Assembly: GCA_963514005.1 (NCBI GenBank)
Contig: OY740811.1
Coordinates: 27,962,001-28,026,000, forward strand
Direction: 5' to 3'
Source: Raja brachyura
Taxonomy: Eukaryota
DNA: 64,000 bases
A program made the translations under genes and the position numbers. This document shows, piece after piece, positions 3,850-62,254 of this stretch (its first letter is position 1; every line of letters starts with the position of its first letter). The notes under the pieces are model-generated. The model worked only from the letters and a program-made list of their open reading frames with translations. It searched no databases and was not told where the DNA came from.

Positions 3850-3883
3850 AGTCTGAAGAAGGGTCTCGACCTGAAACGTCACC
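3850..3883 (+). ncRNA. Hammerhead-like motif in a mini-insert within an SLC45A1 intron (antisense to the gene)
   Basis: agu-CUGAAGA-A-GGGU-CUCG-ACCU-GAAA-CGUC-ACC. Confidence 0.55.
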
Positions 3884-4084
3884 CATTCCTTCTCTGCAGA
3901 GACGCTGCCTGTCCCGTTGAGTTACTCCAGCATTTTGTGTCTACCACGATTTAATAAATGTATATTTTAACTCAAATTCATGTGATGTATTTTGTCAAAA
4001 ATATGTAACTAGCTTTGACATTGCATTGTGTGGTTAGTATTGGTGTTTGAGCAGAGTCCCCACAGTGTAGATTCAGTGCCTTAC

Positions 4085-4261
4085 CTGAATATAAAGCCGC
4101 ACTGAATGCATAGATACACATTCCCCAGCAGCCCACGCTCACTCCTGTGTTGTACTTTTGAAATGCTTCCGAGTCGAGAGGTGCCTTGGGGTCCCCCCCG
4201 TATACCACCTCCCCCATGAAGTCTGTGTAGAAAAGGAGCATCCCTTCAAATGACAGCCAAC
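4085..4261 (-). CDS. SLC45A1: SLC45A1 coding exon 6 (177 bp)
   Basis: [27 protein letters not shown]...[19 protein letters not shown] acceptor, GTAAG donor. Confidence 0.95.
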
Positions 4262-4429
4262 CTGCAGAGGGAGAGCGCACGAGTGATAAACAAAAAGCTC
4301 ACAACAAGGGTTTAAGATTAGGCAGTGTATCTCATTTAACCATACAGCACAGAATGAGGCACATGGACAGATTAGGCTATTAAAACCATTCTTTCAATCT
4401 ACAGCCCGTGGATGCAGCTGACAAAGCTT

Positions 4430-58689: not shown

Positions 58690-59900
58690 CAAGCTACAGT
58701 GAAAAGCTTTGTTTGTATGCTATCCAATCAGATCAGATAATATTATACATAAATGCTATCGTCCAACTCAAGTACAGTAGATAGAGCAAAGGGGAAGATA
58801 CAGAGTGCAGAATATAGTTCTCAATATCATAGTGCATCAATTCCATAGACAAAATCCAATGTATGTAATGGGGTAGAGGTGAATCAGACAGTACCCTAGC
58901 TTATTGATGAACAGTTCAGAAGTCTGATCACAAATGGGAAAAAGCTGTTCCTGAGTCTGGAGGTGTGCACTTTCAAGCTTCTGTACTTTCTGTCAGATTG
59001 GGACAGGGAGAAGAAGGAAAGGGACAAAGGGCGGGACAAGTCTTTGATTATGTTGGCTGCTTTTCCAAGGCTGCGTGAAGTATAGATGGATTCAGTGGTC
59101 GGGAGCCTGGTCTGTATCGTGGACTGGGCTACATCTGCAACTCTCTACAGTTTCTTACAGTCTTGGGCAGAACTGTTTGCAAACCAAATTGTGATGCAAC
59201 CCAAAAGTATGCCCCCTATGGTGCATCTGCAGAGTTGTTAGAAACATGCCAAATTTCTTCTGTCTCCAAAGGAAGTAGAGGTATTGCTGTGCCTTCTTAG
59301 CTATCGCATCAATGTGGTTGGTCCATGACAGCTTGTTGATAATACTAATGCCAAATAAATTAATTTATCAACCATTTCCAATTTGGCACCATTGATGCAG
59401 ATTTGGGCATGTACCGCACCATGCCTCCTGATGTTGATAACTAACTCCTTTGCTTTGCTGACGTAGAGGGAGAGGTTGTTGTCCTGACTTCATGTCACTA
59501 AGTTCTCTATCCTCTTCCTCTATCTTCTCATTGTTCGTGATCTGGCCCACCGCAGTAGTGTCATCTGCAAATTTATAGACGGAGTTAGAGCCAAATTTTG
59601 CCACACAATCGTGAGTGTATATGGAGCATAGTAGGGGACCGAGAGCGCATCCTTGTGGGGCACCAGTGTTGAGAATTATCGTAGAGGAGGTTATGTCACC
59701 TATCCTCACTGATTGTGATCTGTGAGTCAGAAAGTCAAGGATCCTTTGGCAGAGGGGGTGCTGATTCCTAGGTCCTGGCGAGTTTGGATGGGATTATGGT
59801 GTTGAAGGCAGAGCCGATAAATAGGTGCCTAGTGTAGGAATCCTTGTTGTCTAGGTGTTTCAGAGATTAGTTTAGGGCCAAGGACATGGCATCTTCTGTG
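58690..59900 (-). mobile_element. Rex1/Babar-type LINE fragment
   Basis: [40 protein letters not shown]. Confidence 0.8.
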
Positions 59901-59964
59901 GATCTTTAGACCTCTAACCAGTGACTGGGATTCTCTCCACTTAATTCCAACTGATCTTGCACTA

Positions 59965-60565
59965 AATTCGCTCAGCCCATCTGAACCTACCTAATCTCCC
60001 GGTTGCTTAATTTAATTCTCATTCCCATTCCTACGCAGACCTTTCTGTCCCAGGTCTCCTCCATTGTCAGAGTGAGGCTAAACGCAAATTGGAGGAACAG
60101 CGTCTCATATTTCGCTTGGGCAGCTTAAAGCCCAGTGATATGATTATTGATTTCAGGTGGACAAAAGTGCTCGAGAAACTCAGCGGGTGTAGCAGCATCT
60201 ATGGATCGAAGGAAATAGGCAACTTTTCGGGCAGAAACTCTTCTTCAGATATGATTATTGATTTCTCTCACTTCAGGTACCCCCGGCATTTCCTCTCGTT
60301 CTATCCCTCCCCCACCCAAGTCGCACTAGCTTCTGGTTTTCACCCTACAAACTAACAATGGCCTGTTTCCTTTATCATCGTTACTTTTTTGCATATCTTT
60401 TATTCATTGTTCTTTATCTCTGCACATCATCGTCTATATCTCTCGTTTCCCTTATCGCTAACCAGTCTGAAGAAGGGTCTCAACACGAAACGTCACCCAT
60501 TCCTTCTGTCCAGAGATTCTGCCTGTCCTGCCGAGCTACTCCAGCTTTTTGTGTCTATGTTCGAT
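59965..60565 (+). mobile_element. Penelope-like 3' fragment and pLTR with a nested inverted mini-insert (60155-60247)
   Basis: RKLEEQRLIFRLGSLKP; core at 60467; 18-bp duplication GATATGATTATTGATTTC flanks the nested insert. Confidence 0.85.
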
Positions 60566-62254
60566 AAATATTGCAATACTTTATAACACCCTAACTTGTT
60601 AAACTGTGTGGAATTCACTGTTAAGAAACACTTGCAGACAGGGTACACAACTAACCACAATTAACCTGCACCTGGAGAGTTCTCACTTCTGTCATATGAA
60701 CATTAGCTCTTCCAGGATTGACTTCCCAGTAGATTACATTTTGAAAGTTCTGAAAAATAATTTCACACATTAAATAAAGCATAAATAAAAATGTGAAATA
60801 AAACTAAATTGGATGTGTTTTGCAAACCAACGGAAGGAATGTGGGCAGAGCATATTTCCATGATATCAGAATCAGCCGTGGCACTTGGAACAAAATCCAA
60901 AGTGCAGAAGCTGAAATGTGGTTCAGAGATGAAGAATAATTTTAGCTACTGTTCCTCGAAGGAACTTTAGGAGACGATTCTCAAAAATCCAAAATAGGCT
61001 TGGTTACTGGAATCTCGGAAATGTGGGCTGGTTTTAATAGACAAATGGGGAAGGTTGAAAGGTAGACTGGTGAGTGATAAAGACTGCATTGGGATTAAAA
61101 ATAAAACTGCCTCCACACAGAGTGCCAGAGGCACATTCCAACGCATGACCTCATTTCCTGCATGTCAGAGTTTATTACGCCTGACTCACCGGCTCTCTGT
61201 TGCCTGGTGATTTAGTCTGGGGGCATGAGTCCCACCCTGATAAACTTTATTTCCAGAGCACGCCCTCAGGTCCAACTCAAGCATTTTGTCAGTAGTTGCG
61301 GTTTACAGCAAGTACAGACACTCCACTCGTACCACTTCCCAATTTCTCTTAAAGGAGCTAGGCAATTTCAAGGGCGGTTAAAAACACTGCCCCATTCTCT
61401 CCATTTAAAATTTTCTCTCACCCCTCCTGAATAGATTCTCATCACTGTAGAATGCAAGCATCATTTGCCCCGAATAATCCATTCAAAATTATTTTTATGT
61501 GGGGGCTGACAGATTGAATGCTCAGGGTGCTCTATTGTGGATTTCATCACAAAAGAACAAAGCTATTTTTGAGCACTAACCCAGCAATTAAGATTGGGGA
61601 TTCTGCCGGAATCTGCCCTTGCTAATGCAGGTGGACTCAGGCTATCCAAATTCCCTGTTTCATTTGTGTCCCCAGAATTTTTCCCTGATTGAGAAGAGGA
61701 GCTAAAGCAATGGGTCTCCTTGTATGACTCTGAATAACTTTAATTGTTGCATTAACTCCAAAAGAATCAGTGAAAATACGTAATTTGTAAAATGTTTCTG
61801 AGCCAACCAAGATGTTATTAACTGCAGATGCTGGTTTAATCTGAAGATAGACACAAAGAGCTGGAGTAACTCAGGGGTTCAGGCAGCATTTCTGGAGAGA
61901 AGGAATGGGTGACCCTTCTTCAGCCTAGTTAAGGATATGGGAAACAAGAGATACAGATGATGATGTAGAGATAAAGAACAATGAATGCTGGGTTAAAACG
62001 TGGTCGTAGAATCAGAGAACAGGAATAATCACAGAGGTGGAGCAGCAGTAGTGGATATCTCTCGACAGATCAAGAAAGTGGCTTGTTTGGATTGTTCTGT
62101 GCTCTTTCTACTGTTTGAACCAGGCCACAACGTGCTGTTGTTAGACAGATTCAAACTACTGGAGCCTTCCCAGAATCTTCTCTTGCAGTATGAGCAGTCT
62201 TGGGGAAGGATTTCCGATGAAAATGTTATAATATGGGTGTTTAGTTTCGTAAGA

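Follow-up and report, generated by a model that had tools for sequence, protein, structure and literature searches.

What are the hammerhead-like motifs that recur throughout a 64,000-nucleotide stretch of the Raja brachyura genome (GenBank assembly GCA_963514005.1, contig OY740811.1, positions 27,962,001 to 28,026,000, forward strand; here called the window)? An initial annotation, made from the letters alone, had described about 20 full or partial copies, assigned them to Penelope-derived repeats, and proposed that a ribozyme-bearing family had amplified to about one copy per 3 kb. The evidence favors a more restricted answer, to which we give a probability of roughly 0.7: the motif appears to be a minimal type I hammerhead sequence within the pseudo-long terminal repeat (pLTR) of an abundant Penelope-like retrotransposon, the capacity to cut RNA is likely confined to source elements that are still intact, and most window copies are decayed pieces of the repeat end. 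Such motifs have been described before, and the window is typical of its genome; the family is of value as a test system.

Occurrence of the motif

The consensus of the initial annotation (CTGAAGA-A-GGGT-loop-RCCC-GAAA-CGTY-RCC), used as a search pattern with at most 3 mismatches, has 11 matches in the window and 0 in 100 shuffles. A profile trained on 11 window copies (threshold at least 17 bits) detects 26 fragments of one repeat, 19 of them spanning the core, whereas the reversed window used as a control reaches a maximum of 5.9 bits. The estimate of about 20 copies is thus borne out, and all 16 coordinates named at the outset hold a copy. Base C3 of the hammerhead core lies at 3853, 13881, 28219, 30040, 33702, 47674, 51266, 52643 and 60467 in + strand copies, and at 21300, 31981, 49070, 60248 and 61923 in - strand copies; the copies at 25309 and 58069 lack the initial core bases. 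A hammerhead descriptor written without knowledge of this family and run on 759 kb gives 78 matches, all of them in this Penelope family (reversed control, 1), and in the window it recovers two copies, 21300 and 3853. None of the window's 18 tandem-repeat rows is a hammerhead-bearing array.

The 19 core-spanning copies in 64 kb correspond to one per 3.4 kb. A sample of 54 stretches of 10 kb (540 kb), placed at round coordinates, contains 187 fragments, 127 of them core-spanning, or 15 per 64 kb; smaller contigs are over-sampled in it and are denser (59 copies in 200 kb vs 68 in 340 kb elsewhere). The window is therefore ordinary for the genome in motif density and resembles the smaller contigs. 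Extrapolation from the sample gives about 0.9 million fragments and about 0.6 million core-spanning copies genome-wide, and the exact 32-base pattern occurs 58,465 times in the 2.7-Gb genome (29,254 on the + strand, 29,211 on the -; reversed control, 0). The initial figure of about one copy per 3 kb consequently stands as a density, at a level typical of the genome, but what has amplified is a short retrotransposon end and not a selected ribozyme family.

The carrier element

The Penelope origin is confirmed by coding remnants of a GIY-YIG endonuclease, which lie 95-250 nt upstream of the motif in five window copies (together with reverse transcriptase (RT) in one), and by intact elements elsewhere that bear the motif in both pLTRs. 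A genome search yields many near-identical open reading frames (ORFs), several of them open for about 1,200 codons, and in 6 of 14 fetched loci (L062, L065, L066, L070, L073 and L074) the motif flanks the ORF region on both sides. In an intact element the two motif copies are about 4 kb apart, and the motif lies about 165 nt before the first ATG. The carrier is a 4-kb pLTR-ORF-pLTR element whose single ORF consists of RT, a CX4CX2C linker and GIY-YIG. Element copies also display partial-tandem pLTRs, inverted 5' pieces and a 30-40-bp tail.

The ORF is 1,192 amino acids long from the methionine and includes a proline-rich insert. The protein of locus L061 matches RVT_1 (E 2e-4) and GIY-YIG (E 2e-3), both weakly and under the Pfam cut-offs; it contains YIDD and DKG motifs, with the CX4CX2C linker between RT and endonuclease. 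Homologues number 805 at E 1e-30 or better among 7,987 scored (RT plus GIY-YIG families). A PDB sequence search with the RT-endonuclease part gave no match, and a search of metagenome contigs for relatives with flanks gave one weak locus from 89 candidates. By its linker, a mark common to Neptune and Nematis elements, the element can be typed provisionally as Neptune-like. A literature search found no description of this family, although the supplements of a 2026 retrozyme preprint may bear on this point. L070 (3460-3475) and further full-length copies have a word resembling a splice donor that shares bases with the ORF's first ATG. The window also holds an old Penelope-like endonuclease remnant (45161-45797, +; 37-49% identity) with no hammerhead behind it.

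Conservation of the core

To compare families, 72 copies were anchored on the endonuclease and the downstream repeat, with the motif ignored; five families with at least 3 members (64 copies) were kept and 8 singletons dropped. Extra conservation of the boxes across subfamilies, which had been set beforehand as a test, is found: the number of variable sites is 0/13 in the core vs 24/71 in the downstream repeat (Fisher p 0.008), 5/32 in the whole motif and 22/26 upstream, and third codon positions of the endonuclease vary at 26/60 (three families). Boxes CUGANGA and GAAA, U16.1 and H17 are invariant among the five family majorities, and between-family changes at 11.4 and 1.1 are one-sided and preserve U-A or U-G pairs. 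This conservation is moderate evidence for the hammerhead. A compensatory change at pair 10.4-11.4 was also sought; none was seen, and the partner mostly stays unpaired among the 100 copies listed of 1,490 changed at 10.4.

Pairing was surveyed in 175 ungapped copies with intact boxes, taken in part from loci chosen for likeness or for long ORFs. The single nucleotide between 9 and 10.1 is A in 168 of them. Pair 10.1-11.1 is G-C in 140 and G-U in 28, the stem II pairs hold in 147-169, and the 15.2-16.2 palindrome holds in 141 (C-G in 126, the rest mostly CpG decay products). Helix I has pair 2.1-1.1 in 156 and pair 2.2-1.2 in 152; a longer helix I was rejected, since a third pair is present in merely 13. 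Every pair is kept in 95.

Copies in the window

The copies and fragments in the window are listed here, many of them with the position of the C3 base.

21271-21302 (-): the sole fully canonical minimal hammerhead of the window; C3 at 21300, U-G closing stem II, GUU triplet, predicted cut 21273/21272
21207-21760 (-): 5'-truncated Penelope-like copy; GIY-YIG remnant at 21399-21760, then a 95-nt spacer, the hammerhead and the repeat end
3837-3945 (+): solo repeat end with hammerhead; C3 at 3853, G10.1-U11.1 after CpG decay, 11-nt target-site duplication at 3827 and 3946
26666-28311 (+): longest window copy; broken RT and GIY-YIG coding (67-71% identity to the intact ORF), spacer of about 190 nt, decayed hammerhead with C3 at 28219
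26551-26615 (-): inverted repeat-end fragment on the 5' side of the 26666-28311 copy
28309-28355 (+): second partial repeat end, immediately 3' of the 28219 copy
33230-33793 (+): GIY-YIG remnant and hammerhead; C3 at 33702, G12 lost
51830-52391 (-): GIY-YIG remnant and strongly decayed hammerhead; C3 near 51910
59966-60559 (+): GIY-YIG remnant and hammerhead, split by a second copy; C3 at 60467, one stem II pair broken
60155-60248 (-): solo copy starting at the CUGA box, inside the ORF end of another copy; 18-nt target-site duplication at 60137 and 60248
25309-25418 (+): solo copy starting within the motif, tail included; 12-nt target-site duplication
58067-58190 (+): young-family solo copy without C3 and U4, tail present; target-site duplication at 58049 and 58191
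13881-13971 (+): decayed copy, G8 lost
30024-30136 (+): decayed copy; C3 at 30040, 3-nt duplication behind the first box, one stem II pair broken
31888-32000 (-): decayed copy, G12 lost; C3 at 31981
47657-47761 (+): decayed copy, 5-nt loss around the cut site; C3 at 47674
48987-49090 (-): decayed copy, C3 and G12 lost
51249-51360 (+): decayed copy, G12 lost; C3 at 51266
52622-52740 (+): decayed copy, stem III palindrome lost; C3 at 52643
53861-54031 (unstranded): two old decayed copies, head-to-head
61845-61944 (-): copy with an internal deletion that has removed the 15 nt from one GTC word to another, and with them stem II and the GAAA box
22279-22375 (-): copy of a different subfamily with an internal deletion identical to that in 61845-61944
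5041-5126 (-): copy with an internal deletion similar to that in 61845-61944
7247-7308 (-): repeat-end fragment entirely downstream of the cut site
17657-17734 (unstranded): two short inverted repeat-end fragments without hammerhead
19666-19715 (+): short repeat-end fragment without core

Three window copies of different subfamilies (5121, 22355 and 61923) have lost stem II and the GAAA box through 15-nt deletions that are identical or alike and lie between short direct repeats. Such deletions likely arise when RT skips across the hairpin.

Decay after insertion

Among the 15 near-full window copies, the 11 core bases are kept in seven, and all core bases together with all pairs in two (21300 and 3853); of these, 21300 alone additionally retains G10.1-C11.1. 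The initial statement that stem II pairing is kept in the better copies holds for every pair of these two, but for just 2/15 near-full copies. Position 1.1, the base after the cleavage triplet, is A in 11/15 and G in 4/15, as had been described. The suspicion that CpG decay underlies many disruptions is supported as well: relative to a natural reference copy, 22 of 66 substitutions (which include subfamily differences) are CpG transitions, at 6 of 30 positions. In older copies G12 has changed to A in 42/185, compared with 37/185 for G to A at the loop CpG. Dispersed copies thus lose catalytic bases at the neutral CpG rate, with no sign of selection after insertion, and the window copies are passengers because only 2/15 are intact and the catalytic G12 decays like any CpG. 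A lower core mismatch rate in older copies (4.6% vs 9.8%) was set aside, since those copies had been chosen on the motif.

Copy ends, probable RNA start and predicted cut site

Target duplications of 10-16 nt are present in 16/100 copies examined; the 3' ends of these 16, counted from C3, lie at +93 (six copies) or at +125 to +130 (four), positions that match two RT start points plus the tail. For 5' ends, 83 young-family copies, a few of which belong to a sister family, were used: 36 extend past -76, and the other 47 end within -60 to +44. Of the latter, 24 end at -5 to +1, the front edge of the motif, in 9 the alignment breaks off at a family indel (-55, -53), 5 lie between -32 and -27, none lies at -26 to -6, and none (0/47) is at the predicted cut site, +28. 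At loci not chosen for long ORFs, 15/25 young-family copies end at -5 to 0. A wider copy set also has a peak of 5' ends near the first box, but it is confounded by family differences; in that set 1/160 ends at the cut site. At L087 (about 1230-1260, +), telomere-type hexamer repeats abut the first box of a young copy.

A genome-wide count of apparent breaks in the young family gives 204 at N1.1, the first base past the predicted cut, 49 at N17 and 109 at N1.2. Inspection by eye found true breaks, as opposed to internal indels, in 14/20, 9/20 and 13/20 sampled cases, respectively, or roughly 115-140, 22 and 70 events. The excess at the cut site is weak, about two-fold over N1.2, and some of it can come from CpG scarcity, microhomology, fold-back at the GC dinucleotide and double-counted arrays. 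Among the templates, cut RNA accounts for a very small share at most. Three of the N1.1 set are tandem arrays of 61-63 bp in L126, L127 and L130, whose unit starts at N1.1. Otherwise continuous copies in L132 and L125 carry three A's at the predicted cut site (near position 250), and L125 lacks three bases before it. L021:81-1077 is an array of about 15 units, each 66-68 bp long and comprising the part of the repeat end that begins at the GAAA box.

An intron spanning the interval between the ORF end and the AG that precedes the motif, like the one in Drosophila Penelope, was considered but is not supported. The first pattern gave 10 matches with 8 exact joins, but 7 of the 8 are without an upstream ORF and are another family's spacer; a stricter pattern gave an exact join in 1/22 short-gap matches, against 17,823 ORF ends, and the donor is absent in some families. 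Only at L082 (about 1990-2210, -), the remaining one of the 8, is the ORF end joined exactly to the base before the first box, which could be a spliced copy or a microhomology deletion. Matches in public runs were all contigs (24/24) and hence without readable ends or splice joints; 1/24 is on record as RNA and several are probably DNA. The lack of listed core variants in these runs was not used, because word matching biases it.

Proposed mechanism and alternatives

A scheme that would link these ends begins with element RNA that starts just before CUGA; RT starting internally, at +93 or +125, would then run off after about 95-130 nt. We lean toward this scheme together with what it would explain, namely the very many short copies and a helix I of two pairs. 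In source RNA, cleavage would likely follow position 17 (GUC or GUU) and require base pairing of two copies via the ACGU palindrome, probably with element protein aiding the fold, by analogy with the anole element discussed below. Whether such cutting is rare and dispensable for transposition, its likely use being to trim or uncap part of the transcripts, is to us an evenly balanced question; it would not be needed for transposition because a cut would part the RT start site from the upstream RNA. A stronger version is rather doubtful. Here, RNA would start 2-3 bases before the hammerhead, so that the ribozyme would be the first 31 bases of the messenger RNA and would serve as a self-uncapping switch gated by protein and by dimer formation; the short copies, several hundred thousand in number, would be run-off complementary DNAs of this 5' end, and the rarer cut-site copies and 61-63-bp arrays would be a genomic record of in vivo cleavage.

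Several results weigh against a hammerhead that folds, cuts and marks an RNA start. The p value for core conservation is optimistic because the five families are related, and one of them (F2), in which a stem II pair is broken, possibly originated by segmental duplication. Covariation, the check proposed at the outset, is not above shuffles in 41 copies, the families being too close to be informative. Comparison with Rfam hammerhead models yielded no match within the window at E up to 5, and RF00163 has no match genome-wide, where its control likewise gave none anywhere. Helix I, U-A or U-G plus G-C, is weaker than the 2-bp cases in the available part of the published alignment, which have two G-C pairs (PMC4209133). 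Among the 16 5' ends defined by a target duplication, 4 lie at -1 to +1, which is modest support for the pile-up. Folding models, which ignore tertiary contacts, were applied to three natural copies and five family majorities; for all of them the predicted minimum-energy fold differs from the hammerhead. The predicted probability of stem II is at most 0.44 (bare young motif) and otherwise no higher than 0.05 (0.00-0.05 in most flanked constructs), and as a dimer the hammerhead fold reaches -0.9 to -7.1 kcal/mol, which is 13-24 kcal/mol less stable than the minimum predicted for the dimer (-19.7 to -25.0). Naked RNA is thus predicted to misfold, which would agree with the published low activity of such motifs and with protein-assisted cleavage in the anole. 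A single conserved alternative "off" hairpin was not established, its probability ranging from 0.02 to 0.88 across families.

Alternatively, the motif could derive from a hammerhead that has lost the ability to cut, its 30 bases being kept as an internal promoter or protein-binding site. The lack of covariation, the misfolded ensemble, the 2-bp helix I and the clustering of 5' ends at the front edge of the motif would suit such a site. The bases around -3 presumably fit the initiator consensus, and those at +28 to +32 from there 4/5 positions of a downstream promoter element. In Drosophila, Penelope is described as having an internal promoter with such an element (PMC2377424, available part). 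However, the register of the 11 hammerhead core bases, G10.1-C11.1, the palindrome and H17 does not shift from family to family, and all of them agree with motifs from different animal phyla. Apparent 5' breaks, moreover, are commoner at the cut site than at either neighboring base; we therefore regard a purely promoter or binding role as unlikely. Slightly better placed, though still improbable, is the possibility that the 5' ends mark no RNA start at all, but RT stalls or fold-backs at the palindrome UCAG-U-CUGA in copies that have simply suffered the usual heavy 5' truncation. Head-to-head fold-backs at this palindrome do account for several ends at -4 and 0, and heavy 5' truncation with palindromic inverted junctions is reported for Penelope-like elements in the accessible parts of two papers (PMC8557442, PMC3846280). 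Yet most of the clustered ends join unrelated flank, with 3/24 flagged as inverted, and few ends fall in the segment from -32 to -6.

The dispersed copies could instead be an active, selected, retrozyme-like family that cuts host transcripts or its own in place. The number of exact copies, the 95/175 box-intact copies with every pair, and neighbors that could in principle pair would allow this, but the neutral loss of G12, the near absence of intact copies from the window, its lack of a hammerhead tandem array, and a density equal to that of other stretches make it very improbable.

Other features of the window and sampled loci

A 336-codon open frame at 40185-41192 (-) contains an HxxR motif, and Pfam and PDB searches with it gave no significant match; we take it to resemble the tyrosine recombinase of DIRS-type elements. 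Further RT remnants of other retroelements lie at 23137-23640 (-; RVT_1, E 1e-9) and 59371-59793 (-; RVT_1, E 3e-6). A long hairpin at 31528-31601 has weak microRNA-family scores, far under the cut-offs. Among the sampled loci, L026:8076-9848 (-) has a 591-codon frame resembling an NLR immune gene, and L033:7450-9900 (+) an 817-codon gag-protease-RT frame of a long terminal repeat-type element, both by inspection.

Comparison with known systems

The papers compared here are cited for the portions available to us. Minimal hammerhead ribozymes (min-HHRs) in the pLTRs of metazoan Penelope-like elements have been known since 2014 (Cervera and De la Pena 2014, PMC4209133), and the motif is, by its sequence, a close fit to them, as the initial annotation had suggested. 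Shared features are the CUGANGA box, the extra base before stem II, G10.1-C11.1, GAAA, the loopless palindromic C15.2-G16.2 and the UH triplet; the nucleotide between 9 and 10.1, G10.1-C11.1 and palindromic 15.2-16.2 are among four min-HHR features that lie outside the published descriptor. In the published 56-row alignment the first box reads CUGAAGAA in 18 rows, as it does here, and helix I has 2 bp in 6, all G-C. Thus, both caveats of the initial annotation can be eased: the extra A after CUGAnGA is a conserved min-HHR feature, and a 2-bp helix I has precedent. Both systems have one motif per pLTR and copies that are mostly dispersed single motifs. Helix II, with 4 bp, is at the short end of the published range, the motif is far more uniform here than in the published families, and the rows of the published alignment are without cartilaginous fish. 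The 58,465 exact copies compare with about 4,000 in coelacanth and about 9,000 in Xenopus by the published descriptor, although the methods differ.

The carrier resembles the endonuclease-bearing (EN+) elements of the Neptune clade (Craig et al. 2021, PMC8557442) in its single ORF with RT, CX2-5CxxC linker, C-terminal GIY-YIG and DKG, and in its partial-tandem pLTRs, inverted 5' pieces and 30-40-bp tail; in that paper the CX2-5CxxC linker marks Neptune and Nematis elements. It differs in the length of its ORF and in the proline-rich insert. Non-LTR retrozymes, described also from one chondrichthyan genome, likewise have type I hammerheads of Penelope origin (bioRxiv 10.64898/2026.07.22.740005). 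However, they form tandem arrays with a whole hammerhead per unit, whereas the window copies are solo and the short arrays in L021, L126, L127 and L130 lack the first box.

A further comparison is with PAc, a Poseidon element of the green anole, in which hammerhead cleavage is protein-assisted, RT starts internally, ribozyme mutants still insert in vitro and, in the part of the report available, no RNA-sequencing reads end at the cut site (Frangieh et al. 2024, PMC11167929). Both elements have a pLTR hammerhead, two internal RT start points that define the tail, and little sign of cut RNA as template. They belong to different clades, and the PAc ORF begins inside stem II, as opposed to about 165 nt after C3 here; moreover, cleavage was assayed for PAc, whereas the present motif is known from its sequence. 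The anole hammerheads cut only with protein and are dispensable for insertion in vitro. Raja brachyura adds to this comparison many young elements that are intact, and its near-identical copies, tens of thousands of them, have ends that can be counted. Direct tests of the RNA start, of the RT start points and of any in vivo cleavage are therefore feasible.

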